Part shown: in pieces, positions 2,980 through 57,165 of the stretch
Position numbering within the stretch: position 1 is the first letter of the stretch
Layout of the letters: each line of letters opens with the position of its first letter
NCBI GenBank assembly: GCA_020161265.1
Contig: JAIUOC010000003.1
Span: 171,024 to 235,023 of the forward strand
Direction of reading: 5' to 3'
DNA: 64,000 nucleotides
Source: Chloroflexota bacterium
GTDB lineage: Bacteria > Chloroflexota > Chloroflexia > Chloroflexales > Herpetosiphonaceae
Translations under genes and position numbers: made by a program
The notes under the pieces: model-generated
The model's input: only the letters and a program-made list of their open reading frames with translations
Database searches by the model: none
Told to the model about the DNA's origin: nothing

Positions 2980-3730
2980 TCAAACGCTCACGCACTGCCG
3001 GAGCCATACTGTAACGCGCCTTAACTTTTAATGTAATCGTGGTCGTGACTGCACCAATTTCGCCATCTTCGCTGATGATTTCGGGTGTTTCAATCACATC
3101 ATCACCTGGATCGCTGATAATTTGGTGTAGCACGATCATGGTTTCATCAAGTTTGGTGGTTGGCACGGTCAATTTGATGCTGGCTGGCGACCATTTGCCA
3201 CGGGTAAAATTGCGAATGGTGCGAATATCGCCATTGGGCACCAGCCACAGTTCGCCCGACTCGCCGCGAATATAGGTCATGCGCAAACTAATTCGTTCAA
3301 CACACCCCACCACTTGGCGATCGCCAATCTCCACTTTATCGCCCAAGGCAAATTGATCTTCAAACAGCAGCGTAATTCCGCCCAGAAAATCGCTGACATA
3401 AGGCCGCGCACTAAACCCCAAGCCCGCACTAAACAAGCCCAAAAAGGTAAATAAGGCACTTGGCTGAATAAACATGCCCATAATCAAAAACAGCGAGATC
3501 AAAATCGCCAAGCCATTGGTCAGCGACGAAACCAAGGAGCGCAAAGTTTTACGGCGGCGTTCGCTGAGGTTATGGCGGAGCAATTGGGCATTCGAAAGAA
3601 AGGCCCGTCGAATGATAATGCTAATCGCGCGGGCGGCGACTGCCACTAGCAAAAATGTCAGTGTGCCCCGCAAGATATAGTAAGAAATGCTATTGACAGG
3701 TGGTAAATATGGTTGAATCCAATCGAGCAT
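2915..3730 (-). CDS. Small-conductance mechanosensitive channel (MscS family)
   Basis: Three N-terminal TM helices, then the MscS beta-domain pattern (FxxGDxVxIGDxxGxVExIxLRxTxIR..G). The 3' end overlaps the convergent ABM gene by 65 bp. Confidence 0.7.
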   Translation of the reverse strand: MLDWIQPYLPPVNSISYYILRGTLTFLLVAVAARAISIIIRRAFLSNAQLLRHNLSERRRKTLRSLVSSLTNGLAILISLFLIMGMFIQPSALFTFLGLFSAGLGFSARPYVSDFLGGITLLFEDQFALGDKVEIGDRQVVGCVERISLRMTYIRGESGELWLVPNGDIRTIRNFTRGKWSPASIKLTVPTTKLDETMIVLHQIISDPGDDVIETPEIISEDGEIGAVTTTITLKVKARYSMAPAVRERLITQLQAALTEHHVLAADENRE

Positions 3731-3796
3731 AGAGTTCCTCTGCTAGCTGTTTTTCGCCAAACGCTGCGGCAATTCGCATGCCACAGAGTAGCATAG

Positions 3797-3851
3797 GAAA
3801 GGCAAAAGGCAGAAAGTAAAAGGCAAAAGGCAAAAGGCAAAAGGCAAAAGA
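3797..3851. repeat. Tandem hexamer repeat (aaaggc/aaaggca) x about 8
   Basis: Sequence aaaggcaaaaggcagaaagtaaaaggcaaaaggcaaaaggcaaaaggcaaaag. It generates spurious minus-strand ORFs 3658-4083 and 3690-4001. Confidence 0.8.
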
Positions 3852-3905
3852 AGGGCCAGCCAATGCTGAGGGAAGGTAGTATACACATTGGGGACGAGAA
3901 GCATA

Positions 3906-3996
3906 ATTCGTGCAATCCGTGCAATTCGTGGCTAAAATAATAATCCTTCGCGATCTTCGCGTTCTGCGTGGTTTCAATCCTTCGTGCGCTTCGTGG
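3906..3996. repeat. Clusters of 9-10 bp-periodic (c)ttcgtg/cttcgcg boxes (mosaic repeat module)
   Basis: attcgtgcaatccgtgcaattcgtgg at 3906-3932 and ccttcgcgatcttcgcgttctgcgtggtttcaatccttcgtgcgcttcgtgg at 3946-3996. The second is near-identical to the reverse complement of 31134-31190. Confidence 0.75.
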
Positions 3997-4039
3997 ATCA
4001 CAATGCAAACTTGCTTTTTTATAACGCTTCAAATATACT

Positions 4040-4057
4040 TCAAAATAATTTGAAGCA
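4040..4057. promoter_or_regulatory. Perfect palindrome cttcaaa-N4-tttgaag, putative ArsR operator
   Basis: Sequence cttcaaaataatttgaag lies 20 bp upstream of the ArsR-ArsC start codon. ArsR/SmtB repressors bind dyads overlapping their own promoters. Confidence 0.45.
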
Positions 4058-4077
4058 TTTTGATTTGGAGTATTGTT

Positions 4078-4851
4078 ATGCAAAGCCTTGGGCTTGAACC
4101 ACCTGCTGTGCTCAAATTGCTAGCGCACGATCTGCGTTGGCGTTTGTTACAACTTTTAGTCCATAGCGATTATCGGGTACATGAATGTGTGACGGCCTTG
4201 CAAGCGCCGATGAATGTGGTTTCCTATCATTTGCGACTACTCCGTGAAGCAGCCTTGGTGATCGAACGGCGTAGCGAAGCCGATGGTCGTGATGTCTATT
4301 ACCATCTCGATTTGCCTACCTTGCAAACGGCCTATCAAGCGAGTGCTCAAGCGCTCCACCCTGATCTTGATCCATTTGCTGGTAAATCAACTAGCCAAGC
4401 CTATCAACTTAGCAAACCAGTGCGGATTTTGTATTTGTGTACCCACAACAGTGCTCGCTCGCAATTAGCCGAGGCAATTACCCGCCATCTTGGCGGCTCC
4501 ATGCTCGATGTTGTGAGCGCCGGAACCCAACCTGCTGAGGTGCATCCTTTGGTTTTGGCAACCTTGGCCGAAAAAAAGATTGCCAGTGCTGGCCTGTATT
4601 CCAAGGAACTCCAGCCCTACCTTGAGCAAGATTTCGATTATGTGATTACGGTCTGCGATCGTGCGCGTGAACAATGCCCAACGCTGGCTGGACATCCCAC
4701 CAGCATGCACTGGAGTTTTGCCGACCCGTTGCGTGAAACCAGCGAGCTGGCTCAAGCCGCCGCAATTGAAACCACCGCCCAGCAACTGATGACCCGTATT
4801 CGTTTTTTGCTGACCACAATCGAACGTCAACAACGCGAAGGGAGCAAATAA
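4078..4851 (+). CDS. ArsR-family HTH regulator fused to LMW-PTP-type (thioredoxin-coupled) arsenate reductase ArsC
   Basis: N-terminal ArsR/SmtB wHTH ([34 protein letters not shown]). C-terminal [16 protein letters not shown]5R P-loop plus [10 protein letters not shown], with Cys spacing i/i+7 as in B. subtilis ArsC. GGAG RBS lies 8 nt upstream of ATG 4078. The stop overlaps the next start (TAATG). Confidence 0.75.
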
Positions 4852-7474: not shown

Positions 7475-7520
7475 CCAACACCCTCAGCATGGTTCGGTGC
7501 TGAGGGTGTTGAATTTTTAG
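7475..7520 (+). terminator. Rho-independent terminator (14-bp perfect stem, then TTTTT)
   Basis: ccaacaccctcagca-tggttcgg-tgctgagggtgttg followed by aatttttag. An A-tract on the other side makes it potentially bidirectional. Confidence 0.75.
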
Positions 7521-7700
7521 GGATCAGTTGTCAGGGGCTAGGGATCAGTTTGGAACTGCAAAGGATATGAGATATTGGGCTATAGGCTGTTGGCTATAGG
7601 GAAAGTATTATGGTATTTCAACGACTCTCCGATAGCCCATCGCCTAAAGCCTATAGCCTCATGCGCTCTGACCCCTGACAACTAGCCCCTGACCCCTACG
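7521..7700. repeat. Mosaic intergenic repeat instance (gtcaggggctagggatca, gctataggc, ccgatagcc and ctgacccctga modules, imperfect terminal inverted repeats)
   Basis: Shares modules with 25905-26117, 28623-28950, 31134-31300, 32766-32896 and 56987-57165. The left arm agttgtcaggggctag is mirrored by cccctgacaactagcccctgac on the right. Confidence 0.7.
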
Positions 7701-8632: not shown

Positions 8633-8737
8633 GGTTTGGGTCCTTTTGTTAACTAAGTTAAACGACAAACCTAACAATAATAGCATACCATAGCTTAGGT
8701 TTGTGTCAATGTGGCAAGGCGCACAGAAAGGAGTTGT

Positions 8738-12767: not shown

Positions 12768-12884
12768 ACAGTAGCCTCCGTTGATCAAAAATCGCTCACT
12801 ATCATCGTACCGCAATTTTGCTAGCTAAAACGCCAACACTCCGCCGTAAAGACGGAGTGTTGGCTCAAAAGGTTTCAAATTGAA

Positions 12885-13775: not shown

Positions 13776-13896
13776 GGGCTTCGCTCCTTCAATAAACTGG
13801 CTAACGGAGGATACTGCGATTATAGATGGCAATATATGCCATGTCTACCAAGGTTCTGTGCTATCCTGATAGCAAAATTGCGATAAGGATAATGGT

Positions 13897-15759: not shown

Positions 15760-15802
15760 TATAATTGGGCAGCCCTAGCTTAGATGGATTGAGGATTGGC
15801 TC

Positions 15803-17476
15803 ATGACTGAAAGCGTCGCAATTACTGAGCAGCCTAGTCAAACAGCTGCAATAACTATCCCACGTTCGCCCTTAAGTCGGTTGTTGTTGCCAATTGCCTT
15901 GGTGGTGTTGGCGCTTGGTGCAGGGCTGGCAGCGTGGAGCGGACTTAATTTTGGCCCGCAAACGATGCTGATCGGGGCGATTGCCGGCGGAGTTGGCGCA
16001 CTGGCCGCCTTGGTTGGCCTAATTGCTGGCCTGCGTCGGCGCTTGCCCTTGAGTGGTTGGGCCTTAATCGTTGGCACGCTCAGCATTGCTTTGGGCGCAA
16101 CCATGGTCTTCCCTGAACAACGCGAATTGGCGATTATTAGCGCTGCCCTGCCGGTTTTGTGTGCCGCGCTGACCTTGCGCCCCTTGCACACTGCTATTGT
16201 TACGGTTGTTAGTTTAGCGAGTTTATGGGCCGCCGCCTATTTTGCCGCCGCCGAACCAAGCACCAACCAGTTAATTCAATGGAGCTTGCTCAGTGCCTTT
16301 GTGCTCGTGATCAGCATTTTTGCCTTGGTTTGTAGCGCAGCGCTCCGAGCGTTCGATCGCCAGCAAACTGTCGGTCATGAATCAACCACCCAACTCAACA
16401 AGCAACTTGGCGAAGAGCAAGAGCGGGTCGAACGCGCTGCCCAAATGTTGGTGCAAGAGCGCGATCGGCTGGCGGCAGTGCTGGGCGCAGCGAGCGATGG
16501 CGTGGTGTTGGCCGATAGCAATGGCATCATTTTGCAGGCCAATGCTGCTGCCCGCCAATTGTTGAATGAAGCGTTTGGCGGCACACTCGAAGGCCAAGCG
16601 CTCAACCAGTGGAGCCAAGAAAACACAGGCCGTTTGCGGGTGATCAGCAACGAACGTGAAGGCGAACGCCAACGCGTGGTTTTTGAGCAACAACAAGGCA
16701 CACGCAAACCCGTGATTGGTCTCAACCAAGTGCCAATTCGCAGTAGCGCAGGCAGTGTGTTGGGCTATGTTGGGGTTTTCCACGATAAAACCACCGAATT
16801 AGAAGTTGAAGAAATGCGTTCGCAATTGCTCGATTTCCTCGTGCAAGATATGCATGATCCGCTGAATTCGGTGTTGGCAGCCCAAGATACCTTGTTGGCT
16901 GGCGATTTGGGCGATGGCAATGAGCGGGTTTTATCGACCGCTCGCCGCACAACCTCGCGCTTGGTTGAGCTAACCAATACCCTGATGGAAATGAGCCGTT
17001 TGCATGGCGACCCCAACAGCCTGCATCGTTTGGCTAACCCATTGCGCCCATTGATCGAAGGCAGCATCGCCCAATCAACACCGCAAGCCCAACAACGGGC
17101 AATCAACTTGGTGTTGGAGTATGGCGCTGATAGTGGTGGCCTCGCCTTCGATGCCGATAAGATGCGGCGGGTGATGAGCCACTTGCTTGATAATGCTTTG
17201 CGTCGCAGCCCAGCGTATAGCACGGTGCGGGTGCAAGTCAGCAACACGGGCGGCAATGCCCAAGTACGGATCGCCGACCAAGGCCCAAGTATTCCGGTTG
17301 AACTAGCAGGCCGCATTTTTGATCGCTTCAGCAAGCAGGTTGGCGAACAACGCATCGGCGGGGTTGGCCTAGCCTATTGCAAACAGGTGATTGAGGCTCA
17401 TGGTGGCCGAATTTGGGTTGATAGCACGCCTGGCAAAGGCAGTACCTTTATCTTTAGCATGCCCTCAGCAGCATAA
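15803..17476 (+). CDS. Sensor histidine kinase (membrane, PAS, HisKA, HATPase_c), no cognate response regulator adjacent
   Basis: 4-5 N-terminal TM helices; a PAS-like segment (RDRLAAVLGAASDGVVLADSNGIIL); H-box MHDPLNSV; G-box GGVGLAYCKQVIEAHGGRIWVDSTPGKGSTF. Confidence 0.8.
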   Translation: MTESVAITEQPSQTAAITIPRSPLSRLLLPIALVVLALGAGLAAWSGLNFGPQTMLIGAIAGGVGALAALVGLIAGLRRRLPLSGWALIVGTLSIALGATMVFPEQRELAIISAALPVLCAALTLRPLHTAIVTVVSLASLWAAAYFAAAEPSTNQLIQWSLLSAFVLVISIFALVCSAALRAFDRQQTVGHESTTQLNKQLGEEQERVERAAQMLVQERDRLAAVLGAASDGVVLADSNGIILQANAAARQLLNEAFGGTLEGQALNQWSQENTGRLRVISNEREGERQRVVFEQQQGTRKPVIGLNQVPIRSSAGSVLGYVGVFHDKTTELEVEEMRSQLLDFLVQDMHDPLNSVLAAQDTLLAGDLGDGNERVLSTARRTTSRLVELTNTLMEMSRLHGDPNSLHRLANPLRPLIEGSIAQSTPQAQQRAINLVLEYGADSGGLAFDADKMRRVMSHLLDNALRRSPAYSTVRVQVSNTGGNAQVRIADQGPSIPVELAGRIFDRFSKQVGEQRIGGVGLAYCKQVIEAHGGRIWVDSTPGKGSTFIFSMPSAA

Positions 17477-17491
17477 TCTAGGAGTAGTTCC

Positions 17492-18493
17492 ATGGCAAAA
17501 GTAGGCCGCAACGACCCATGCCCATGTGGCAGTGGCAAAAAATATAAGCAATGTCATGAAGCAGCTGACCGTGCCCAGGAAGACCAGTTACGCTTATTAC
17601 GCCGTGCCCAAGATCGGTTGTTTCCTAAATTGATCGAGGCCACCCAAAGCGAAGAATTAGCTCCTAGCACGCCTACTCTGTTTGAGCAATATTGGGGCGG
17701 GCGCTACACTGCCGCCGATATGAGCGAGCTTGATGAGCTGGAAGATCGTGGCTCAGAGCGCTTTTTGACTTGGCTGGCCTTCGATGCCCAAAGTGGCGAC
17801 GATGGCTCAACCTTGGTCGAACGGATCGCCGCTAATCCGCCAGCTGAGCTTGAGCTTGACGAACATGAACTGAATTTATTACCAACTTGGGCTGGCATTC
17901 GCTTGCGCCCTTATCTGATTACAGAAATTATCAAGGGCAAAGGCGCGTTGATTCAAGAGGTTTTGACCAAAGAAACCTTTACCTTGCGTGACCATGCTGC
18001 CGCCAAGCGCTTGGAAGAAAATGAGCTGATTTTTGCCCACCTTGTGCCAGTTGGCGAAGAATACTACATTGCTGGCGCAGCGGCTCAAACCACGCCCGAC
18101 ACGGTAGAGAAACTTAGTGAATTCTTGGCAGTTAGCTTGGAAGATTGGCAATTGCGCAATCCTGAAGCTGATCTGAATCAGTTTGTGCGTGAAAATAGCT
18201 ACCTGTTCAATCATTTTATCTCAGTGTTGCCACGCGAAGAAAAAGAACCATCGAAGTTTGACGATTTGATGCTGCGTGGCCGCACCGCCTTGCTGATGAC
18301 CAAACAATCGCTTGGTTTGGGCGGAGCTGATGACGATGACGATGATGAAGATACTGATGACGATGATAGTGATGAATTTGACGACGATCAGGCTGATGAT
18401 GATCAAGTTGATGATGAATTTGATGACGCTGAGCAACCTGATGATGATCAAACCGAAGCGCTAACCGATTCAGACCAACAGCCAACCAAATAA
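17492..18493 (+). CDS. SEC-C motif protein with poly-acidic (D/E-rich) C-terminal tail
   Basis: N-terminal [18 protein letters not shown] (SEC-C metal-binding motif). The C-terminal 70 aa are over 60% Asp/Glu ([20 protein letters not shown]...). GGAG RBS. Confidence 0.7.
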
Positions 18494-18508
18494 CGCTGGC
18501 ACGTCATT

Positions 18509-18552
18509 TAATCAGGGGTAGGAATGAGCCTAGGCCGCATTCCACCCCTGAT
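18509..18552. other. Long imperfect hairpin (about 16-bp stem, palindromic loop gcctaggc) 3' of the SEC-C gene
   Basis: aatcaggggtaggaatg-agcctaggccg-cattccacccctgatt. No clean T-tract, so possibly an attenuator or processing site rather than a canonical terminator. Confidence 0.4.
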
Positions 18553-18631
18553 TGTTGATTAAACCTTTGACTTTGCTGCGGCGTTCAGCTACCATGCAAT
18601 GGATGGAGAATTGGCTCAGGAATTGAGGAAT

Positions 18632-20017
18632 ATGTCTGATCAATCACCACTCAGCGAGCGTGAAATCGAGGTCTTGCGCCAGCTCGCGCTGGGGGCAAGC
18701 AATAACGAAATTGCCAATACGCTGGTCATCAGCCCCAATACAGTCAAAGTGCATATTCGCAATATCTACGCCAAGCTGGGGGTGTTATCACGGGCTGAGG
18801 CGACACTTGAGGCTGTACGGCGCGGCCTGATCGAGGTTTTGAATACCCCAAATCCAGTGCCTGAGCCTGAGAGCATTCCTGAGAGCGAGCCGCTCGTCAG
18901 TATTCCAATTGATGAGCCAATCGCGCCTGAACCAATGCAGCTTCCCAGCACAACGCAGCCGATCACAACCTCAGTGCCCGATCCGATTACCCCAGTGATC
19001 ACCCAACCAACCAATCAAATTACAATTCCCCGAGCCTATGCTTTGGCGATTTTGGGTGTGCTATTTGGGCTGATTGTAGCGGTTGTGGCAATTGGCTGGT
19101 TTGTCGTGCGCGGCAACATCACGCCAACTACCCAGCCTGCGACAACGCTTGTGAGCAATGTGTGGCAACCACTGACCGCGCTGCCAGAGCCAACCTACCA
19201 ACATGCCGGGGTTTTTCTAGCCGATAGTTTGATTGTAATTGGCGGCAACACTGATACTGGCGTGGTGGCGCATACTCGTCAATTGAATTTGGCGACGGGG
19301 GCGTGGCGTGAGTTGGCGACCAAACCAACGGCGGTGGCCTCTAGTGGTGCAGTGCAGATTGCTGGCCAAATTTATGTAGCAGGTGGCCGCGATAAAAATG
19401 GTGCTGCTAGCAATATTTTAGAGATTTTTGACCTAGCCCAAAATCGTTGGCAAACAGGCCCAGCCATGCCTGCCCCACGCGCCAATGCCATGATTGCCGC
19501 GATCGATGGCAAAGTTTATGTGTTTGGCGGCGAGAACGAGGGGATCATCGCCGATACCAGCTTTATTTATAGCCCTGATACCCAAAGCTGGAGCCAAGGC
19601 CCAGCCATACCATTGGCCTTGCGTGATGCAGCTATCGCCCAAAGTGGCGGCGATGTTGTATTGATCGGCGGCCAAACCTCAACTGGCCCCAGCCTTGGAA
19701 CCTGGCGTTTGCAAACTGGCACATGGCAAAAATTAACCGATCTGCCAGCCCCACGGATTGACGCTGGCGCGGTTTATATCACCAATCAGATCTATTTGGT
19801 GGGTGGAGCTGAGGGCGACCAAGCTATTTTGGTATTGCAAAACAATATCTGGAATGCAACCGATTTGCGCACCGGCCATGCTGTCAGCGAACACCTCGTG
19901 CTTTCAAACGCTCGGGATATTTATAGCATTGGTGGCTGGAATGGCACGAATGCGCTCGCTGAAACCCGCAGTTGGACTCCGATTACCAATATCTTTTTGC
20001 CAAGTGTGGGCAAATAG
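18632..20017 (+). CDS. Membrane-tethered one-component regulator: N-terminal LuxR/GerE HTH, Pro-rich linker, TM helix, extracytoplasmic Kelch-repeat beta-propeller
   Basis: LSEREIEVLRQLALGASNNEIANTLVISPNTVKVHIRNIYAKLGV (LuxR HTH). TM segment AILGVLFGLIVAVVAIGWFVV. Four or more Kelch-like repeats (GxxYVxGG, W). The start is uncertain: an in-frame ATG at 18599 is the alternative, and 18632 has a GAGGAAT RBS. Confidence 0.7.
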   Translation: MSDQSPLSEREIEVLRQLALGASNNEIANTLVISPNTVKVHIRNIYAKLGVLSRAEATLEAVRRGLIEVLNTPNPVPEPESIPESEPLVSIPIDEPIAPEPMQLPSTTQPITTSVPDPITPVITQPTNQITIPRAYALAILGVLFGLIVAVVAIGWFVVRGNITPTTQPATTLVSNVWQPLTALPEPTYQHAGVFLADSLIVIGGNTDTGVVAHTRQLNLATGAWRELATKPTAVASSGAVQIAGQIYVAGGRDKNGAASNILEIFDLAQNRWQTGPAMPAPRANAMIAAIDGKVYVFGGENEGIIADTSFIYSPDTQSWSQGPAIPLALRDAAIAQSGGDVVLIGGQTSTGPSLGTWRLQTGTWQKLTDLPAPRIDAGAVYITNQIYLVGGAEGDQAILVLQNNIWNATDLRTGHAVSEHLVLSNARDIYSIGGWNGTNALAETRSWTPITNIFLPSVGK

Positions 20018-20752
20018 CTACATGCCAAAACTCAAACGGGCTGCCAAAATATTGGGCAAGCCATGTTCAAGCATCAAGGTTTGGGTACGCCGAATATTGT
20101 AAGTTGTGCGATGGAAGCTGACCGTTTGTTGCTCATCGTCATAAATTGCCCAACCAGAGCGAGCATCGCCATCGCGGGGTTGACCAACCCCACCAGCATT
20201 GATGATATAGCGTTTATCGGGTTGCAGCTTGAGCACCAATTGATCAGTCGGAATCGTCGCAGTGCAATGATCGCCAAGCATATCAGCAGTAAAAATTACT
20301 GGCTGATGAGTATGGCCCACAAAGCAAATCGGTGTGCTAAAATGATCAAACGAATAGGTTGCTCCCACGGTATCGAGTAAATATTCCCAAACCGGGTCGC
20401 GTGGGCTACCGTGTGCCAAGGTAACCATATCATTAACCTGTTGCATCGGGCTGAGGCTCAGCAAAAACTCGCGATGCTCCTCGGTTAATTGCAAGCCATT
20501 CCATTCGTTGGCAATCCGCGCATCACGATTAAAATTGGTCAAGGGAATAGTGCCAAGGCAACCAAGGTCGTGATTGCCGACCAACATCGCTTGCTGGCGT
20601 TCACGCATGAGCGCAACACATTCATTTGGTTGAGGCCCATAACCAACCGTATCACCCAAACACCAAACCGAATCGACCTCGCCTGCTGCTCCAAGAACAG
20701 CTTCCAGTGCGGCTAAGTTAGCATGAATATCAGCAAGAACCAGAACCCGCAT
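20018..20752 (-). CDS. Metallophosphoesterase (calcineurin-like, YfcE/MJ0936 family)
   Basis: MRVLVLADIHAN..GDTVGYGPQP..GNHD motifs (DxH, GDxxD/G, GNHD). Confidence 0.8.
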   Translation of the reverse strand: MRVLVLADIHANLAALEAVLGAAGEVDSVWCLGDTVGYGPQPNECVALMRERQQAMLVGNHDLGCLGTIPLTNFNRDARIANEWNGLQLTEEHREFLLSLSPMQQVNDMVTLAHGSPRDPVWEYLLDTVGATYSFDHFSTPICFVGHTHQPVIFTADMLGDHCTATIPTDQLVLKLQPDKRYIINAGGVGQPRDGDARSGWAIYDDEQQTVSFHRTTYNIRRTQTLMLEHGLPNILAARLSFGM

Positions 20753-20849
20753 GTGTTACCTTTCTGCAATCAAGCGCTGTTTCTGTGGCAAGGGTTGGTA
20801 GAGTATAATGGCGGTCAGAAGCCTTTGTTGAGCTTGAACGAGGAACGTC

Positions 20850-22496
20850 GTGGAACCAGTGCATCACTGCCCATATGTGGGCCTTAAACAAAATCGTGCG
20901 ATTCGTTTCGCGAGTCCTACGCCGGAGCACCGCTGCTACATGACCGGAGAGGCTCACGACATCCCAGTGCCCCAAGCCTCGTTTTGCCTAAGCAGCAACC
21001 ATGTGCGTTGCCCATTATATGCAGGTGAAGATCTGCCGATTGCGCAGGTTGTCAGCACGCCTACGCCAGTTGCGGTGGGTGGTTGGCGCGGCTGGCTGGC
21101 TGGTTTATCAACCCGCGATCGCCGCATTTATGCCACCTTGGTGGGCCTACTTGGCTTAATTATTGTGGCCTATGCGATTAGCGGCGTTGTTTTATTTAGC
21201 AACCCCGATACTCCAGCCATCCCTAGCGCTACCTCGCAAGTGCTTCAGCCAACATCCGATAGCCCAACATTAACGGTCTCACCATCGCCAAATGCCTTTG
21301 CCACAGCAGCGGTTCGTCAAACTCAAACAGCCGAAGTTATTGCTCAAACCACTACCGTTACTCCCTCGGTCTCTGCTACGCCATCGGCTTCTGCAACCAC
21401 TCAGGTGATTCTTGCATCGCCAACCTTTATTATTGTACCGCCAACTGAAGATGTGATTGTAGCCTCTGCTACTCCTAGCATTCCGTTTGCCACCGATCTG
21501 CCAACCTTCGAGCCAACCTTATCGCCAATTGCCACAACTGCCGTGCCAACCATTGAGCCAACCGTCGAACCGACAGTTGAGCCAACCGTTGAACCAACCA
21601 TTGAGCCAACCGTCGAACCGACAGTTGAGCCGACTGTCGAGCCAACGCCTGAACCGATCCCTGAGCCAACTGCTCAGCCGACGGAGGAAACTGGCGGTCG
21701 CGAGGTTAATCAATTAACCTTGTTTTTTGCCGATAGCACTGGCCAAGTGTTAGTGCCAGTCTCGCGCCAGATTGCCGCAACTCGTCAGCCACGGACTGCC
21801 GCAATCCAACAGTTAATTCAAGGTGCACGTAGCGATTTGCGTAGTTTGTTGCCCAGCGATACTCAATTACTTGGGCTACGCTTGAACAACGGTATTGCTA
21901 GCGCTAATTTTAACCGTATCCCGACGTTTGGCAATTCAAGCCTAGAAGATTTAGGCTTGCGTTCAATTGTGTTGGCCTTGACTGAGCAACCAGAGATTAC
22001 GCAGGTGCAAATTCAAGTCCAAGGCCAGAATTTGGGTGGCTTGCGCTATCGTCCCAATGTCAACCCCGATAATCCGCAGGGTTTAAGTGGTCAGTTTAAC
22101 ACAACTTCGTTCTTGCCGTTATATTTTCAGCAAAGTAGTGGCCGTTGGGTGCGGGTGATGCGGCTTGTGCCAAGCACCAAAACTGAGGCCCGTGCTACCG
22201 TTGATGAACTTATTCGCGGCGCTGGCCGCTATAGTCATGTTGTTAGTAGTGCCATTCCGAGCACCAGCCAAGTGCGACGTTTGGTGATTGTTGATGGGGT
22301 TGCCCAGCTTGATCTTAGCGCTGAATTCAGCCAAACCAGCAATCCGCGTGCGGCAGTTGATGCCTTAGTATTGGCATTAACTTCGTTCAGCAGTGTGCAA
22401 CAGGTGCAGATTACGGTCGAAGGCCAAGCGCTCAGCAATATTTGGGGCGTAACATTCAGCAATCCCTTCGTTCGCCCACAACTCAACCCTGAATAG
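20850..22496 (+). CDS. Bitopic membrane protein with Cys/His-rich cytoplasmic N-terminus, (EPTV)n linker and two GerMN-like (germane) extracytoplasmic domains
   Basis: GTG start after a GAGGAA RBS. TM segment LVGLLGLIIVAYAISGVVLF. The LTLFFADSTGQVLVPVSR and VSSAIPSTSQVRRLVIVDGVAQLDLS pattern is typical of GerMN domains. Confidence 0.55.
   Translation: MEPVHHCPYVGLKQNRAIRFASPTPEHRCYMTGEAHDIPVPQASFCLSSNHVRCPLYAGEDLPIAQVVSTPTPVAVGGWRGWLAGLSTRDRRIYATLVGLLGLIIVAYAISGVVLFSNPDTPAIPSATSQVLQPTSDSPTLTVSPSPNAFATAAVRQTQTAEVIAQTTTVTPSVSATPSASATTQVILASPTFIIVPPTEDVIVASATPSIPFATDLPTFEPTLSPIATTAVPTIEPTVEPTVEPTVEPTIEPTVEPTVEPTVEPTPEPIPEPTAQPTEETGGREVNQLTLFFADSTGQVLVPVSRQIAATRQPRTAAIQQLIQGARSDLRSLLPSDTQLLGLRLNNGIASANFNRIPTFGNSSLEDLGLRSIVLALTEQPEITQVQIQVQGQNLGGLRYRPNVNPDNPQGLSGQFNTTSFLPLYFQQSSGRWVRVMRLVPSTKTEARATVDELIRGAGRYSHVVSSAIPSTSQVRRLVIVDGVAQLDLSAEFSQTSNPRAAVDALVLALTSFSSVQQVQITVEGQALSNIWGVTFSNPFVRPQLNPE
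21543..21674 (+). repeat. Intragenic 12-bp tandem repeat (gagccaaccgtc/gaaccgacagtt) x about 10, encoding (EPTV)n
   Basis: Direct reading of 21543-21674; explains the overlapping spurious ORFs at 21401-21717 in other frames. Confidence 0.85.
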
Positions 22497-22503
22497 GATT
22501 AAT

Positions 22504-22683
22504 TGGGGATCGGTTGTTGGGGGTTGGGGATCGGGAGAAGGATGAAGGATGAGGGATGAGGGATGAAATTTAACCACAAGGAATCCCAAGTACACGAATT
22601 AAAATCGTTGAATGTTTGAATTGCCACTAAAATCGAATAGAACGATCAATCCCCACTTCGTGTTCTTCGTGCTCTTCGTGGTT
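22504..22683. repeat. Mosaic intergenic repeat instance (gggatcgg, degenerate (a/g)ggatga x4, gggatgaaatttaac junction, cttcgtg x3)
   Basis: The junction gggatgaaatttaac is shared with 28770-28784. The triplet ccacttcgtgttcttcgtgctcttcgtgg is at 22655-22682. Confidence 0.75.
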
Positions 22684-22720
22684 AAAACATTCGTTTAGTT
22701 TAGCTAGATTGAGAATTTCC

Positions 22721-24841
22721 ATGGATTATGCCTATTTAATTGCCAAAAGCTTGACGGTGCGTGCCGAGCAAGTTACCGCTGCGATTCAATTATTCGATGC
22801 AGGCAATACTTTGCCGTTCGTCGCCCGCTATCGCAAAGAGCAAACTGGTGGCTTGGATGAGGAACAATTACGCAGCATCCAAAGCCAAATTGCCCGTTTA
22901 CGCGAGCTTGATGAACGGCGCGAGGCAATTTTGAGTGCTCTGCGCGAGCAAGGCAATTTGAGCGATGAATTAGCTCAAGCCTTGGCCGCCGCTACTGATA
23001 AAACCACCCTCGAAGATTTGTATGCGCCTTTCAAGCCCAAACGGCGTACCCGCGCCAGCATTGCCCGCGAACGTGGCCTCGAAGGCTTGGCTGACATTAT
23101 CCAAATGCAGCCGAATGACCCGATTGATGCCACCGCTCGCCAGTTTCTCAACGAACAGGTTACCAGCATTGAAGAGGCCTTGGCGGGAGCACGCGATATT
23201 GTGGCCGAGCAGATCAGCGATCATCCTGAGGTGCGCCGTCAAACTCGCGAACGGGCTTTGCGTTGGGGCGTAGTTCGCAGCGAGTTAATCGCCGATGCCG
23301 AGGATAGCAAGGGCGTATATCAAACCTACTATCAATTTGAGAGCACGGCCAGCCGCCTCAAGCCCTACCAAGTGCTTGCGCTCAATCGCGGCGAAACCGA
23401 ACATATTTTGCGCTTCAAAATTCAGATGGATCAACGTGATTGGTTTGATGTAGTTGCCAAATATTTTCCGCTTGATCAGCGTTCAGCCTGGGCCGAGCAA
23501 CTGCGTTTGGCAATTCACGATGGTGCTGAGCGTTTGCTCTTGCCAGCCATCGAGCGCGATGTGCGCCGCGCCCTGACTGAGCAAGCCGAAAGCCATGCGA
23601 TCACCGTCTTTGCCAAGAATGTGCATTCGTTGTTGTTGCAAGCACCAATCGCCAACAATGTGGTGCTCGGGCTTGATCCAGGCTACCGCACTGGTTGCAA
23701 AGTAGCGATTATCGGCCAAACTGGCAATGTGCTCACGACTGCCACAATTTATCCCCATAGCGGCGCGGCAGCGCGTGAACGGGCTTTTCAAGAATTGCAA
23801 ACGTTGATCAAACGCTATACCGTTAGTTTGATTGCGATTGGCAATGGCACAGCCTCGCGCGAAACTGAGCAATTAGTCGCCGATGTGATTCGCCACCAAA
23901 CTGGCTTGCACTATTTGATTGTCAGCGAAGCTGGAGCCAGTGTTTATAGCGCCAGCAGCCTTGCCCGTAGCGAATTGCCTGATCTCGATGTCAGCTTGCG
24001 CGGCGCGGTTTCGATTGCGCGGCGGGTGCAAGACCCTTTGGCCGAGTTGGTCAAAATCGAGCCAAAAGCAATTGGCGTGGGCATGTATCAACATGATGTT
24101 GATCAATCGGCCTTGGGCAATGCGCTTGATGGGGTGGTTGAGAGCGCAGTTAATAATGTTGGGGTTGATGTCAACACCGCCTCGCCTGCACTTTTACGCT
24201 ATGTTGCGGGGATTGGCCCCAAACTTTCGGCTCAAATTGTCAGCCATCGCGAGGAAAATGGCCCATTTCGTTCACGCCAAGCACTCAAAAAGGTCAAAGG
24301 GCTTGGGCCAAAAGCCTTTGAACAAGCCGCTGGATTTTTGCGGATTCGCGATGGCGATGAAGCTTTGGATGCCAGTGCGATTCACCCCGAAAGTTATACG
24401 GTTACCCGTAATTTGCTGGCCAAGCTGAATATTAACGCCAAAACAGGCCGCAACGAACGGATCAAACGCTTGGAAGATTTGAAAAATCAGCCATTGCATA
24501 GCCTTGCGGCGGAATTGGGCACAGGCGTACCAACCCTGAGCGATATTATTGATCAACTGCTACGGCCAGGCCGCGACCCACGCGAGGATGTGCCAGCACC
24601 AATTTTGCGCAGCGATGTGCTGGCGTTTGAAGATTTGCAGCCAGGCATGCAGCTCAAAGGCACGGTGCGCAATGTCGTCGATTGGGGCGCATTTATCGAT
24701 TTGGGGGTTAAGCACGATGGCTTATTGCACCGTTCGCAAATTCCCCGTGGCCTGAGTCTGAGTGTTGGCGATATTGTTGATGTTAGCATTCAATCAATCG
24801 ACCCAGATCGCAAACGGATTGCCTTAGTTTTAGCGCAATAA
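22721..24841 (+). CDS. tex: Transcription accessory protein Tex (YqgF/HhH/S1 domains)
   Basis: N-terminus RAEQVTAAIQLFDAGNTLPFVARYRKEQTGGLDEEQL matches the conserved Tex start. The C-terminal S1 domain is GMQLKGTVRNVVDWGAFIDLGVKHDGLLH. Confidence 0.9.
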   Translation: MDYAYLIAKSLTVRAEQVTAAIQLFDAGNTLPFVARYRKEQTGGLDEEQLRSIQSQIARLRELDERREAILSALREQGNLSDELAQALAAATDKTTLEDLYAPFKPKRRTRASIARERGLEGLADIIQMQPNDPIDATARQFLNEQVTSIEEALAGARDIVAEQISDHPEVRRQTRERALRWGVVRSELIADAEDSKGVYQTYYQFESTASRLKPYQVLALNRGETEHILRFKIQMDQRDWFDVVAKYFPLDQRSAWAEQLRLAIHDGAERLLLPAIERDVRRALTEQAESHAITVFAKNVHSLLLQAPIANNVVLGLDPGYRTGCKVAIIGQTGNVLTTATIYPHSGAAARERAFQELQTLIKRYTVSLIAIGNGTASRETEQLVADVIRHQTGLHYLIVSEAGASVYSASSLARSELPDLDVSLRGAVSIARRVQDPLAELVKIEPKAIGVGMYQHDVDQSALGNALDGVVESAVNNVGVDVNTASPALLRYVAGIGPKLSAQIVSHREENGPFRSRQALKKVKGLGPKAFEQAAGFLRIRDGDEALDASAIHPESYTVTRNLLAKLNINAKTGRNERIKRLEDLKNQPLHSLAAELGTGVPTLSDIIDQLLRPGRDPREDVPAPILRSDVLAFEDLQPGMQLKGTVRNVVDWGAFIDLGVKHDGLLHRSQIPRGLSLSVGDIVDVSIQSIDPDRKRIALVLAQ

Positions 24842-24924
24842 GCCTCAGCCTGCGGTACAATAGACGGCGGCGCTGGCTTGATCTAGCGCCTTAAGATTTG
24901 CTTTATCAACAAAAGAGGTAGCTT

Positions 24925-25902
24925 GTGAGCACGACTCCTATTAGCGATTTTTTGCGCCATAACTTTCGCCACTTCAACGCGGCAGCCATGATCGATGCCA
25001 GCGATGCCTATGTGCGCCACCTTGAAAACAACGGCAAAATGATGATTACCCTTGCTGGCGCGATGAGCACCGCCGAATTGGGAATCTCGTTGGCCGAAAT
25101 GATTCGCCAAGATAAAGTGCAAATTATTTCGTGTACCGGAGCCAACCTCGAAGAAGATTTATTCAACTTAGTGGCTCACGATTACTACGAACGGGTGCCG
25201 CATTATCGCGATTTAACGCCCGATGATGAAGCTGCACTGTTGGCTCGCCATATGAATCGGGTCACCGACACCTGTATTCCCGAAGAAGAAGCCATGCGCC
25301 GCTTGGAACGCGCCTTGGTCGATGAATGGACAGCGGCTGATGCAGCAGGCGAGCGCTATTTCCCCCACGAATTTCTCTATCGAATTTTGCGCAAAGGCGT
25401 TTTAGAAGAATATTTCCAAATCGATATTAAAGATTCGTGGATGTACGCCGCGATGGAGAAAAACCTGCCAATCATCGTGCCAGGCTGGGAAGATTCAACG
25501 ACTGGCAATATGTATGCAGCTCACTGTATCCAAGGCGAAATCAAGAATATTCACACTGTGCGGACTGGGATCGAATATATGGCCTATTTGGCCGAATGGT
25601 ATATCGAAATCAGCAAAACTCATTCAATTGGCTTCTATCAAATTGGCGGCGGCATTGCTGGCGACTTCCCAATTTGTGTTGTGCCAATGTTGCACCAAGA
25701 TATGCAAATGGGCAACGTGCCAGTGTGGGGCTATTTTTGCCAAATCAGTGACTCAACGACCAGCTACGGCTCTTATTCAGGCGCAGTGCCCAACGAAAAA
25801 ATCACCTGGGGCAAATTAGAACCAACCACGCCTAAATTTATTGTCGAATCCGATGCTTCAATTGTTGCACCATTGATGTTTGCTTTGATTTTGGGGCAAT
25901 AA
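24925..25902 (+). CDS. Deoxyhypusine synthase-like protein (DHS family, bacterial short form)
   Basis: FLRHNFRHFNA...AGAMSTAELG...ISCTGANLEEDLFNL pattern, recalled as characteristic of DHS-like proteins. GTG start with an upstream agagg. Confidence 0.5.
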   Translation: MSTTPISDFLRHNFRHFNAAAMIDASDAYVRHLENNGKMMITLAGAMSTAELGISLAEMIRQDKVQIISCTGANLEEDLFNLVAHDYYERVPHYRDLTPDDEAALLARHMNRVTDTCIPEEEAMRRLERALVDEWTAADAAGERYFPHEFLYRILRKGVLEEYFQIDIKDSWMYAAMEKNLPIIVPGWEDSTTGNMYAAHCIQGEIKNIHTVRTGIEYMAYLAEWYIEISKTHSIGFYQIGGGIAGDFPICVVPMLHQDMQMGNVPVWGYFCQISDSTTSYGSYSGAVPNEKITWGKLEPTTPKFIVESDASIVAPLMFALILGQ

Positions 25903-25904
25903 AC

Positions 25905-26117
25905 AGAACATAGAGCATAGAGCATAGAACATACATTATTAACCGCGAAGAGGATATGGCTATAGGCTATGGGCTATTGGAAGATTGGTTGAAATTGCAA
26001 ATGATCCGATAGCCTATAGCCAACGTGCTCTGATCCTCTGTGTTAATGATGATCTCTGACCCCTGACCCTTAGCCCCTAACCTTACCTTCGTGCCTCTTT
26101 GTGCCCTTGGTGGATCA
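25905..26117. repeat. Mosaic intergenic repeat instance (catagag/catagaa run, gctataggc, ccgatagcc, ctgacccctga, cttcgtg-type triplet)
   Basis: acagaacatagagcatagagcatagaacata ... ctctgacccctgacccttagcccctaacc ... ccttcgtgcctctttgtgcccttggtgg. Confidence 0.75.
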
Positions 26118-26184
26118 AATTTGGCTCCTCACCCTAAATCCCCCTCATTAGTAGCCTAAAATTCCTACTCATATATACATAGCC

Positions 26185-26478
26185 ATGGATCGATATTTGC
26201 TTGCTTTGATCGAGGTGATAGCGATCGTTGGCAAGCTAACCATTATGCTTGGGGGCAAATCGTCGCTAGCGTGTTGGCAATCTCATACCGAAAGCTCTCA
26301 CCGTTGCCAACATTGTGCCAAGTGCCTGCAATGTGCGAGGCAGTGGTTGATCTGCCCCAAGAAAATAATTGGGAAAGTGCGGCATAGATTTATCCTTGGA
26401 ATGGTTGACGTTAGCCTAGACCAACCAGTAACTACTGTTAGCGCAATGTTAAAAAGTAGCATAAAGCATATTTTCTAG
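26185..26478 (+). CDS. Hypothetical Cys/His-rich small protein in a low-GC islet
   Basis: 97-aa ORF with no convincing RBS. It lies in an AT-richer segment and is kept as a low-confidence call. Confidence 0.25.
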   Translation: MDRYLLALIEVIAIVGKLTIMLGGKSSLACWQSHTESSHRCQHCAKCLQCARQWLICPKKIIGKVRHRFILGMVDVSLDQPVTTVSAMLKSSIKHIF

Positions 26479-26649
26479 GAACGTTGGCCATTATCAAAAC
26501 GTTCTACTTACAACGAAAGCACATTGGGTAAATTAGTTGGTTAACTTGAAATTGTACTCTAAAACCATAGTCCTTCTGGTTGAGAAAACGTTTCCAACCA
26601 TCAGGGGAGTAAAGGTGAATAGCACTCACGAAAGGGTAGTAGTAAACAA

Positions 26650-26874
26650 ATGAGCATGGTAATTGAAACTCAAACATATACAATCAAAATTTCGCCTAAT
26701 ACCGATGAGCATAGCATCTCGATTGTGCGCTCGGATGGAATTGAGGCTACCTGTTATCAACTAAACGAGGTTATTACGGTTGTCGAAGTGCTGGGTGGGC
26801 GTGGCTGGTGGCAGCAACATCAAACCCAAGTTCGTAGCCTCCTCGAAGCATGTTTTGGGGAAACAGTCTGTTAA
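26650..26874 (+). CDS. Hypothetical small protein (74 aa)
   Basis: The ORF is followed 20 bp later by a strong plus-strand rho-independent terminator, which argues for real transcription in this orientation. Confidence 0.4.
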   Translation: MSMVIETQTYTIKISPNTDEHSISIVRSDGIEATCYQLNEVITVVEVLGGRGWWQQHQTQVRSLLEACFGETVC

Positions 26875-26893
26875 ACCCCAACCAATAGATCAA

Positions 26894-26927
26894 CAGGGCG
26901 GATGTTGCATCCGCCCTGTTTTTGTTT
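26894..26927 (+). terminator. Rho-independent terminator (cagggcggatg-ttgc-atccgccctg, then TTTTTGTTT)
   Basis: A perfect 10-11 bp GC-rich stem followed by a T-tract on the plus strand only. Confidence 0.75.
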
Positions 26928-26929
26928 AA

Positions 26930-28558
<1,629 letters not shown>

Positions 28559-28622
28559 TGCAATGCCTCCTTGCACTCCAAAACGGGGGCTGGCTCTCAG
28601 CTATCGATTTGCGCCATCATAC

Positions 28623-28950
28623 CATAGAGCATAGAACATAGAGCATAGAACATATAAGGGATGAGGGATGAGGGATGAGGGATGAGGGATGAGGGATGAG
28701 GGATGAGGGATGAGGGATGAGGGATGAGGGATGAGGGATGAGGGATGAGGGATGAGGGATGAGGGATGAGGGATGAAATTTAACGCGGCGGAGCAAAGGG
28801 TGAGGCTATAGGCTAGCGGAGCGTGGTTAAAATCCTAACATTGGTTCCGCTAGCCAAACGTCAATAGCCAAGAGCCTCAGCTTCGTGAGCTTCGTGCCCT
28901 TCGTGGATCAAAAACAACATTCCAATAGCCCATAGCCCATAGCCTATTGC
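28623..28950. repeat. Mosaic intergenic repeat instance, most complete copy (catagag run, (gggatga)17, aaatttaac junction, gctataggc, ccgctagcc, cttcgtg x3, ccaatagcccatagcccatagcc)
   Basis: Direct reading. All modules also occur at the other listed instances, in varying order and orientation. Confidence 0.85.
28658..28776. repeat. Perfect heptanucleotide microsatellite (gggatga) x17
   Basis: 119 bp of uninterrupted gggatga units, counted from the sequence. Confidence 0.95.
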
Positions 28951-46410: not shown

Positions 46411-46527
46411 AAGCAAAGCCCCTCGTCCACCGCAATGGGCGAGAGGCTTTTTATTCATCCCGTTCTATTACAAACCAATGATCCTATGGTTCATCAGTGG
46501 GTTTCTGCCCATCACTAATTGCCCTTG

Positions 46528-46596
46528 AGGGGGTGCAGGGGGATTAAAGCCCCCTGCGTCTCCCGCCTTGAGGCGGGACGGAAGGGTGGTGATCAG
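46528..46596. repeat. Twin-hairpin REP-like intergenic element, copy 2
   Basis: gggggtgcagggggattaaagccccctgcgtctcccgccttgaggcgggacggaagggtggtgatcagg; lies between convergent genes. Confidence 0.75.
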
Positions 46597-56986: not shown

Positions 56987-57165
56987 CCGCGAAGGACACA
57001 AAGGATACGAAGCTGAGGTTATAGGCTTTTGATGCTCCAACGCATCCCCGATAGCCAAAAGTCTTCAGCCCATACCCTGAAAATCAACATTTATGCTTTT
57101 CGTAGTTGAAACCATTGGTTTTATGCTCTATGTTCTATGTTCTGTGCTCTATCGTTGTTCTATCT
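56987..57165. repeat. Mosaic intergenic repeat instance (reverse orientation: cttcgtg-type, ctataggc, ccgatagcc, catagag-type run)
   Basis: ccgcgaaggacacaaaggatacgaag ... gaggttataggc ... atgctctatgttctatgttctgtgctctatcg. Confidence 0.7.

Follow-up and report, generated by a model that had tools for sequence, protein, structure and literature searches.

Polar mosaic repeats between Herpetosiphon genes and their possible link to a hairpin-flanked nuclease minigene

Background

Short tandem heptamers of bacterial genomes, among them the short tandemly repeated repetitive (STRR) sequences, long simple sequence repeats (SSRs) and the GGGNATC and TAACTGA repeats, have been catalogued since 1990 without an accepted account of their origin or function. 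Here we describe a family of mosaic extragenic repeats in 64,000 nucleotides of a Chloroflexota bacterium (Herpetosiphonaceae; assembly GCA_020161265.1, contig JAIUOC010000003.1, positions 171,024 to 235,023 of the forward strand), hereafter the window, with emphasis on the element at window positions 28,623 to 28,950. Its elements are built in a fixed order from arrays of 7- and 9-nt units, and their terminal 9-mer array resembles an arm that flanks genes of the GxxExxY nuclease family in other phyla.

The GGGNATC and GGGGAYT repeats of Xanthomonas and Nostoc are intergenic heptamers of variable copy number, some in inverted pairs, which form G-quadruplexes and whose G-rich strand is sense after stop codons and antisense before start codons (Rehm et al. 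2015, PMC4692102). Geobacter metallireducens has "putative global regulator binding sites" of classes 1-3, inverted pairs of three to five tandem 7-, 8- or 9-mers whose separation varies (Aklujkar et al. 2009, PMC2700814). Arrays of the heptamer TAACTGA occur in Beggiatoaceae, Cyanobacteria and Bacteroidetes; horizontal transfer was suspected, the vehicle not having been found (MacGregor 2015, PMC4679880). Coxiella's intervening sequence (IVS) carries tandem heptamers upstream of its open reading frame (ORF) (PMC4990558).

A polar family of extragenic repeats

The window has about 51% G+C and its proteins match Herpetosiphon (the Tex protein with 92% identity to H. llansteffanensis, the DUF4938 protein with 87% to H. 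geysericola). A sequence-only reading had named eight intergenic regions sharing short modules, and each of the eight carries the modules, at the coordinates, assigned to it. Tandem Repeats Finder (TRF), run on the whole window, confines 7- and 9-nt arrays to these regions; the 7-mers are CATAGAR, GGGATGA, GGCTATR, GTCAGGG/GGGGATC and AAAGGCA, the 9-mers CTTCGTGNN x3. Tandem modules are 20-60 times more frequent than expected from shuffles, with 5-13 observed in the window against 0.16-0.29 (CTTCGTGNNCTTCGTG with at most two mismatches, 13 versus 0.29; GGCTATAGGCTATA, 9 versus 0.16; CCCTGACCCCTGAC, 5 versus 0.25; CATAGAGCATAGAA, 11 versus 0.24). Module bases make up 9% of intergenic and 1.8% of coding sequence. 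As the modules recur across 226 kb from at least five Herpetosiphon genomes (the window and 13 loci, hereafter the Herpetosiphon sample), they form a real non-coding repeat family and not isolated low-complexity DNA, as had been supposed; genome-wide spread is an extrapolation from the window and loci of 8-22 kb.

Two members come in addition to those listed before, a sixth array type, AAAGGCA, at 3798-3850, and a small hairpin, AATCAGGGG..CCCCTGATT, at about 18510-18555; the strict polarity, the cross-phylum spread of the 9-mer and GGCTATN, and the link of the 9-mer arm to nuclease minigenes had likewise gone unremarked. The segments 3946-3996 and the reverse complement of 31134-31190, previously called nearly identical, are only 86% complementary over 36 nt. 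Spurious ORFs do arise from the repeats as predicted: ORFs 3658..4083 and 3690..4001 overlie element 1, and the alcohol dehydrogenase (ADH) ORF 30034..31188 runs into element 6, its true start being at 31068 as in the gene called on L001 (see below). A scan of the window for tRNA and tmRNA found none, and Rfam 15, applied to the window and eight loci with array pairs, gave no match at gathering score and chance-level matches alone at E<=1.

The modules had been taken to occur in different assortments. The mosaic is real, but the order is not arbitrary. In the orientation of the element, the 5' part runs AAAGGCA, CATAGAR, GGGATGA with the junction AAATTTAACGCRGCGG.., and GGGGATC/GTCAGGG; the middle consists of (GGCTATR)n, a loop, (YATAGCC)n and CCCTGAC; and the 3' end has CTTCGCGNN x3 with GGTTTCA, then CTTCGTGNN x3 with G-ATCAA or G-TTAAA. 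Any module may be missing, and the 3' terminus is formed by one or two (CTTCGYGNN)3-G blocks. Purines predominate in the 5' half of all eight window elements (69%; G 296 versus C 89), pyrimidines in the 3' half (59%). Across the Herpetosiphon sample, A (CATAGAR), B (GGGATGA) and F arrays on the same strand as a 9-mer (E) array lie upstream of it 87 times and downstream four times, those on the opposite strand downstream 19 times and never upstream, so that 106 of 110 relations obey the order.

Terminal inverted repeats are present as e..E, C..c and D..d arms, and the GGCTATR..YATAGCC hairpins of Herpetosiphon put the purine arm first without exception (16:0). Hairpin folding energies are modestly better than those of shuffles, with z-scores of -2.3 to -3.6 in five of seven Herpetosiphon segments and no significance in the other two. 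Tracts of G3-4 in units with 3-4 further nucleotides, repeated at least four times (GGGATGA x17 and x4, GGGGATC runs), have the potential to form quadruplexes. The orientation rule of Rehm et al. (2015) for the G-rich strand is satisfied in 8/8 window elements, an outcome that the symmetry of the element polarity gives automatically.

Element 5 exhibits most of this architecture on the plus strand. Its A array, CATAGAG/CATAGAA x4-5 (28623-28657), is followed by a B array of (GGGATGA)17 (28657-28776; units of the form G3N4, 100% identical according to TRF) and by the junction module AATTTAACGCGGCGGAGCAAAG (28777-28798), which is kept at the orthologous site of L126, a contig of a close relative, and in other Herpetosiphon copies. 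A predicted C..c hairpin, GGCTATAGGCTAGCGGAGC, loop, GTTCCGCTAGCC and then AATAGCCAAGAGCC, occupies 28804-28876; its z-score for the whole 146 nt, -1.4, is not significant. The E array, CTTCGTGAG CTTCGTGCC CTTCGTG with GATCAAAAA (28881-28914), agrees in unit, unit number and following G with the arm found beside GxxExxY genes of other phyla. A distal array, (ATAGCCC)3 at 28925-28944, is separated by 28 nt from the stop codon of the minus-strand DUF4938 gene (28973..29977).

The conserved junction claimed to end the GGGATGA arrays is found twice in the window (GATGAAATTTAAC, at 22562 and 28772). As a conserved non-repeat sequence of about 20 nt, TTTAACGCRGCGGMGCARAG, it stands at 28777-28798 and, with its first 9 nt only, at 22567-22575; it is also present in L083, L089 and L129 and, reversed, in L028, L121 and L122. 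Placed behind GGGATGA arrays or 9-mer tails, it serves as a linker between stacked elements.

Variation between relatives

L126 is 95% identical to the window and colinear with positions 12782-28631 except at 22537-22651 and 25952-26070, both inside elements, and the colinearity itself stops at 28631 within the CATAGAR array of element 5. In element 3 both genomes share the G-rich arrays at the flank and the block of 9-mers; the middle (22537-22651) holds GGGATGA x4 and the junction in the window, versus GGCTATN x3, a MITE-like (miniature inverted-repeat transposable element) insert of 150 nt and YATAGCC x2 in L126. The middle of element 4 (25952-26070) differs as well. At the site of element 5, L126 has one CATAGAG and two RGGATGA before the same junction, against 4-5 and 17 in the window.

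The surroundings of elements 5 and 6 are rearranged. In three relatives genes for ferredoxin, aldo-keto reductase and dNK come after the DUF4938 gene, and an ABC transporter gene precedes ADH in the two relatives for which the region upstream of ADH is available; in the window the ADH and DUF4938 genes form a pair bounded by elements 5 and 6, in a neighbourhood unlike that of the three relatives. Upstream of ADH, conservation in three species (among them H. geysericola and L123) is limited to the last 9-mer unit, GGATCAAAAA and the promoter region, and the modules beyond that unit differ in each.

These comparisons show that arrays gain and lose units at their sites through slippage, that copies exchange entire middle modules, and that the elements coincide with synteny breakpoints. 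The earlier view that the family recombines is thus borne out: the differences from L126 are confined to elements, their middle modules are swapped, and synteny stops inside an array. Its mobilisation is not, for the comparisons do not show transposition, and the elements have neither target-site duplications nor conserved internal sequence nor a neighbouring transposase family.

A metagenome contig of the same strain (L001, JGI Ga0056911_1000255), 100% identical to the window, stops at 28695 inside (GGGATGA)n, from which we conclude that the repeat breaks short-read assemblies. The MITE-like element of the relatives, about 150 nt long and bounded by TTCCCTCACCCC...GGGGTGAGGGAA as terminal inverted repeats, is located in L126 (~9765-9905 and ~15915-16015), L123 (~8505-8650) and L129 (~9555-9690), nested in the loops of GGCTATR hairpins or adjoining the junction module, and is absent from the window.

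The 9-mer module in other phyla

The pattern CTTCGTGNNCTTCGTGNNCTTCGTG matches at least 120 stretches among contigs representing one genome per species, against about 0.3 expected by chance according to our own calculation; abundance per genome and taxonomic range are lower bounds. Among the matches listed are Acidobacteriota, Desulfobacterota, Planctomycetota, Verrucomicrobiota, Chloroflexota, Nitrospirota, Gemmatimonadota and Alpha-, Beta- and Gammaproteobacteria, with the isolates Desulfobacter vibrioformis, Methylobacter luteus, Thioalkalivibrio denitrificans and Phenylobacterium terrae; IMG/VR contigs hold 96 further stretches. Exactly three units are present in 156 of 163 arrays among the matches listed, followed by G (94%), T (91%), G/T, A and A (GT[G/T]AA), none of which was demanded by the search pattern. 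The two spacer bases of the unit are mostly pyrimidines, and the variant units CTCTGTG, CTCCGTG, CTTTGCG and CTTCATG occur in the same array architecture.

About half of the arrays have an inverted partner 12-260 nt upstream. These e..E pairs place the purine arm first in 102 cases and last in nine, and they fold with z-scores of -7 to -12. Outside Herpetosiphon the E arrays lie mostly at the 3' ends of genes (convergent 33%, co-directional 56%, divergent 10%; gene contexts come from a crude ORF caller that is unreliable above 60% G+C, which includes high-GC viral contigs). Unpaired arrays tend to point toward the nearer gene (37/58, p = 0.05); with respect to the direction of transcription they favour neither strand. 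Across more than 200 loci the pairs have no recurrent transposase family next to them or between their arms, and the only recurrent enclosed or neighbouring genes are those of orthologous phage-like contigs and the GxxExxY gene.

The GGCTATN module is likewise not restricted to Herpetosiphon: arrays of 3-7 units were found in L313-L341, unrelated IMG/VR contigs of 35-70% GC, with purine-first hairpins in L320, L336 and L339 and arrays stopping exactly at a start codon in L329 and L340. In a metagenome-assembled Vicinamibacterales genome (L051, 6440-7700), at least seven head-to-tail copies of a 155-bp unit, composed of a CCACGAAG..CTTCGTG palindrome and a conserved tail, resemble BIME-2 clusters (BIME, bacterial interspersed mosaic element).

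A nuclease minigene between 9-mer arms

The first minigenes were found by seeking ORFs between distant inverted 9-mer arrays. In L036 a gene of 123 aa starts 3 nt after TCACCACGAAGAGCACGAAGGGACACGAAGG, and CTTCGTGCTCTTCGTGCTCTTCGTGGTGAA starts 3 nt after its stop codon; the protein belongs to GxxExxY (TIGR04256, Pfam PDDEXK_3, PF13366), which a survey of the PD-(D/E)XK superfamily lists as a family of unknown function with "multiple transfers" (PMC3424549). Including L036, four loci with the E pattern contain this gene, which starts 0-3 nt after the purine arm in three of them and about 11 nt after it in L100.

For an unbiased sample, 80 GxxExxY loci were fetched from metagenomes by two peptide motifs alone, without reference to arrays. 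In 61 of 79 loci a purine-type 9-periodic array is located no more than 75 nt upstream, in 28 of them reaching the start codon (gap 0-1 nt); downstream, 67 of 77 have a pyrimidine-type array, and 55 loci have both arms. In 50 of these 55 the upstream and downstream units are of complementary types (CACGAAG/CTTCGTG 41, CACAGAG/CTCTGTG 6, CATGAAG/CTTCATG 3). Over 38 distinct arm pairs 93% of cells are paired, and compensatory changes occur in 8/16 pairs; double changes number 29 versus 12.5 +/- 4.1 in shuffles, none of 500 shuffles reaching the observed value. The arms covary and therefore pair. The unit can be written as [TCAC-(CACGAAGrr)3]-ATG...GxxExxY PD-(D/E)XK gene...stop-[(CTTCGTGyy)3-GT(G/T)AA].

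The same architecture is present in replicons of Bacteroides finegoldii, Bernardetia and Sphingomonas, the arms of the Sphingomonas copy, CGCGAAG/CTTCGCG, corresponding to the second Herpetosiphon variant. The PD-(D/E)XK residues D67, E77 and K79 are invariant in the alignment, and between Gammaproteobacteria, Desantisbacteria and Bipolaricaulota the protein keeps an identity of 80-95%; a search of the PDB by sequence gave no relative. The near-identical loci L267 and L273, like L270 and L271, have three versus two units in the 3' arm, a difference of one unit that indicates slippage within minigene arms. Another geometry of flanking arrays is seen around a distant GxxExxY gene (39% identity) on a Prevotella nigrescens plasmid (L312), where both flanks, 100-155 and 582-680, consist of direct, not inverted, 9-periodic ACAAATMGN units.

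In the window, two to three CTTCGTG-type units followed by G(T) stand at 3980-3996, 22656-22683, 28881-28906 and, as reverse complement, 31141-31189. At the level of sequence, the terminal 9-mer block of the elements thus matches the 3' arm of GxxExxY minigenes in its unit, its number of units and the G that follows.

Anatomy of the remaining elements

Element 1 (3797..3996, plus strand), between divergent genes, begins with the purine-rich array (AAAGGCA)7 at 3798-3850 and has three 9-mer arrays, AATTCGTGC x3 (3905-3930), CTTCGCGNN x3 with GGTTTCAAT (3946-3975) and CTTCGTGCGCTTCGTG with GATCA (3980-4000), after which a promoter-like site, TTGCTT-17-TATACT, was read by eye. Element 2 (7519..7700, plus), between convergent genes and directly past a canonical terminator hairpin (7483-7513), is a nested foldback of GGGATCAG..GTCAGGGG..CTAGGGATCAG, then GGCTATA/GGCTGTT/GGCTATA, a loop and GATAGCC..TATAGCC, ending in CTGACCC CTGACAA CTAGCCC CTGACCC (z -2.85). 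The minimal D-type hairpin (18510..18555, plus; z -3.6), AATCAGGGGTAGGAATG..CATTCCACCCCTGATT, lies past a gene ending at 18493.

Element 3 (22504..22683, plus) starts with G-rich arrays of the GGGGATC type (22504-22535), continues with (RGGATGA)4 and the junction AAATTTAAC (22539-22575) and a unique spacer, and ends in (CTTCGTGNN)3 with GGTTAAAA (22656-22687), 33 nt upstream of the Tex start codon (22721). Element 4 (25905..26117, plus; z -3.3) consists of (CATAGAR)3-4, a hairpin of (GGCTATR)3, loop and (YATAGCC)2, then CTGACCC CTGACCC TTAGCCC and degenerate 9-mers with GGATCAAA.

Element 6 (31134..31300, minus; z -2.3) adjoins the conserved ADH promoter region; CATAGAG is followed by a hairpin of GGATTCAGGGGCC..GATCAGGGGTCAGG, loop and TGATCCCTAGCCCCTGAATCC, and the 3' end is CTTCGTGTC CTTCGCGTT CTTCGTG GTTTCA and CTTCGTGGCTCAAAAA. 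Element 7 (32766..32896, plus; z -2.9), between two minus-strand genes, has RGGATGA units and a hairpin of TTAGGGGTCAGAGG, loop and CCCTGAC CCCTGAC CCC. Element 8 (56987..57165, minus), between divergent genes, is composed of (CATAGAR)4-5, a weak hairpin GGCTATCGGGG..CCTATAACC and the degenerate 3' end CTTCGTATC CTTTGTGTC CTTCGCG with GTTAAAAA.

Other features of the window are separate from the family. A GC-rich repeat of 91 nt with a hairpin, CCCCGCCTTGAGGCGGGG, occurs at 818-908 and 46505-46595 (copies 85% identical) and has 94% identity to H. llansteffanensis (L028, 5069-5129); Rfam gives Whalefall-1 for it at chance level only (E 0.33). Two coding repeats are unrelated to the intergenic family, a PT-type tandem repeat of 12/24/48 nt in a Germane-domain protein (21545-21646) and acidic GATGAC-type repeats (18327-18426) at the end of ORF 17492..18493. 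The protein encoded at 31305-32732 (minus strand) has matches to Band_7/SPFH and the shoulder of the major vault protein and a weak match to Vault_3, and may be a vault-shoulder-like SPFH protein in a bacterium.

Origin of the elements

We interpret the elements as BIME/STRR-like nests of foldback elements with short-tandem-array arms, which evolve by slippage and recombination and whose 9-mer arm would come from a cross-phylum, hairpin-flanked nuclease minigene, and assign this interpretation a probability of roughly 0.55. The sampled loci contain about 100 ORF-less inverted pairs versus four filled by a gene; the ORF-less pairs of many phyla, like the solo arms of Herpetosiphon, would then descend from such minigenes or be what is left of them. 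A nuclease-driven, homing-like copying may use the arms for recognition and homology. In transcripts the arms would fold over the Shine-Dalgarno-like GAAGGA of the 5' arm, that is, over the ribosome-binding region. The other array types would probably be arms of analogous element families, and consequences for the host (RNA hairpins, tracts prone to G-quadruplexes, recombination hot spots) would be by-products. Speculatively, a purine-first hairpin would supply a purine-rich leader to an ORF in its loop in either orientation, which would explain the universal polarity.

Several observations weigh against a minigene origin. No GxxExxY gene or remnant was detected by tblastn in the Herpetosiphon sample, and the plasmid collection gave no Herpetosiphon match. 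The E arrays of Herpetosiphon are almost all solo, with one e..E pair in 226 kb and one more recognised by eye (L122, 3985-4100), and those of the window have no complementary CACGAAG-type 5' arm paired with them. Our data contain no presence/absence polymorphism of an ORF at orthologous hairpins, and 41 inspected array pairs revealed no flanking direct repeat and hence no target-site duplication. The spacers of different 9-mer pairs are unrelated, homology being confined to orthologous loci. In several genomes the minigene is retained at the same selA-selB-like locus (genes named by eye), a pattern that looks like vertical descent. The structural model obtained for the protein has a pLDDT of 48, too poor to use. 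The 7-mer modules have no associated gene known and could be plain slippage-prone repeats.

Alternatively, the elements could be regulatory or architectural sites of the host, bound cooperatively by a nucleoid protein or regulator, or acting as G-quadruplex or hairpin punctuation that insulates or terminates at gene borders. The Geobacter paired sites (3 x TCTCCGTS[Y], 4 x GTTGCTYN, 5 x MTYCTGA) were interpreted in that way (PMC2700814), and GGGATGA and GGGGATC have the G3-4N3-4 form of GGGNATC repeats, which form G-quadruplexes in vitro and follow the same strand rule (PMC4692102). The preference of E arrays outside Herpetosiphon for gene 3' ends, and the last E unit with GGATCAAAAA, which three species retain immediately upstream of the ADH promoter region, also fit. 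However, the elements lack the T-run signature of terminators, matches to promoters and terminators are not enriched, canonical terminators sit alongside the elements (7483-7513 and 26892-26920), and unpaired arrays have no strand bias relative to transcription. Module turnover between 95%-identical genomes is not expected of conserved regulatory sites, and at least six unrelated unit sequences would require as many proteins. We consider a regulatory origin unlikely. Among specific candidates, intrinsic terminators were rejected (a marginal 5-bp stem at 31172-31158 in element 6 only, and no more sites than in shuffles), as were DnaA boxes, IHF sites, integron attC cores, Chi and anti-Shine-Dalgarno sequences, compared by eye with the consensus, which are inconsistent across the variants. 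A coding role of the 9-mers was rejected too, the tail variants placing stops in different frames and both orientations occurring.

Polymerase slippage in slack intergenic DNA could expand 7- and 9-mer tracts into plain SSRs without element identity, mobility or function. Copy numbers that differ at orthologous sites (17 versus 2, 4 versus 1, and 3 versus 2 in L267/L273) and the perfection of the 17 GGGATGA units are what slippage produces, and heptamers are the most frequent class of long SSRs in prokaryotes (Mrazek 2007, as cited in PMC4679880 and PMC4692102). Yet slippage alone gives neither a fixed module order nor a purine-to-pyrimidine polarity, and it leaves unaccounted for the conserved non-repeat junctions, the exactly three 9-mers with a GT[G/T]AA tail across phyla and the covariation of arms around a specific gene. 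As a full explanation it appears improbable.

Repetitive extragenic palindromes (REPs) and BIMEs that a REP-associated tyrosine transposase (RAYT) disperses, or MITEs belonging to a conventional insertion sequence (IS), resemble the elements in being extragenic, mosaic, hairpin-forming and present in both orientations, in the tandem clusters of palindromic units exemplified by L051 and in the separate MITE of about 150 nt with the terminal inverted repeat TTCCCTCACCCC that is nested in loops of relatives, but this origin is very improbable, because the arm consensus has no GTAG head and no GTAG-type REP unit exists, target-site duplications and conserved internal sequence are missing, and the sole recurrent gene in more than 200 loci is the GxxExxY nuclease and not a transposase (no RAYT, or Y1 transposase, gene was seen among neighbours in the fetched loci, whole genomes not having been scanned).

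A bolder extension of the minigene interpretation is put forward tentatively, as we judge it rather less probable. The (CTTCGTGNN)3 arms may mark an undescribed, horizontally spreading selfish element, a PD-(D/E)XK (GxxExxY) gene of about 120 aa in the loop of a tandem-9-mer stem, of which the ORF-less hairpins, by far the more abundant form, would be homing sites or decay products, and the heptamer hairpins found in Herpetosiphon, Geobacter, Xanthomonas and cyanobacteria (STRR) would represent the arms of sister families. If true, it would provide a mechanistic origin for a class of bacterial repeats that has been unexplained for 35 years. What the window itself adds is a strict polarity rule for the assembly of arrays around hairpins and the observation that arrays are the sites where close genomes differ and rearrange. 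One array type is moreover physically coupled, in several phyla with gut Bacteroides among them, to a conserved nuclease gene, and thereby to a concrete protein. A practical nuisance is explained as well, since the arrays break assemblies and create false ORFs.

Comparison with known systems

Searches of one literature library with the motif strings, and for GxxExxY together with repeats, returned nothing relevant. The BIMEs and REPs of enterobacteria are alike in being extragenic, stereotyped mosaics of short palindromic units and linkers in both orientations, enriched after gene ends and occasionally forming tandem clusters. In contrast, the Herpetosiphon units are tandem 7- and 9-mers and not single GTAG palindromes of 35 nt, their purine-to-pyrimidine polarity is strict, and no RAYT is known for them. 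REPs are species-specific, whereas one arm type is here common to several phyla.

STRR sequences and long heptanucleotide SSRs share with the elements the intergenic tandem heptamers whose copy number varies between relatives, and the GGGGATC/GGGGATT units of Herpetosiphon fit the GGGNATC/GGGGAYT consensus. Unlike there, the heptamers of Herpetosiphon (Chloroflexota) are one layer of a multi-module element that also has hairpins and 9-mer blocks. The Geobacter class 2 sites, three 9-mers of TCTCCGTS[Y], are by consensus one base from CTTCGTG and resemble the CTCCGTG and CTCTGTG variants, and class 3, five heptamers of CTCCTGA/ATTCTGA, resembles CCCTGAC. They differ in being described from one genome and read as IHF/HU sites, and the part of the report drawn on here mentions neither a link to GxxExxY nor a cross-phylum spread (PMC2700814). 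TAACTGA arrays parallel the elements in having a unit common to distant phyla, in their intergenic position and in often abutting start codons; their unit is different, their repeats are direct and almost never inverted pairs, and no associated gene has been identified.

The IVSs of 23S rRNA and the fold-back inhibition of ISs likewise involve a small ORF in the loop of a long inverted-repeat stem, which can occlude the ribosome-binding site of the ORF in read-through transcripts. The present elements lie outside rRNA, and the ORF encodes a PD-(D/E)XK nuclease instead of S23p or a transposase. None of the descriptions of BIME/REP, STRR/GGGNATC and TAACTGA repeats, nor that part of the Geobacter report, mentions the polarity grammar, a 9-mer arm common to several phyla or the association with a nuclease. 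The feature of the window itself belongs with mosaic extragenic repeats, and it is the link to the nuclease minigene that may be new in kind.

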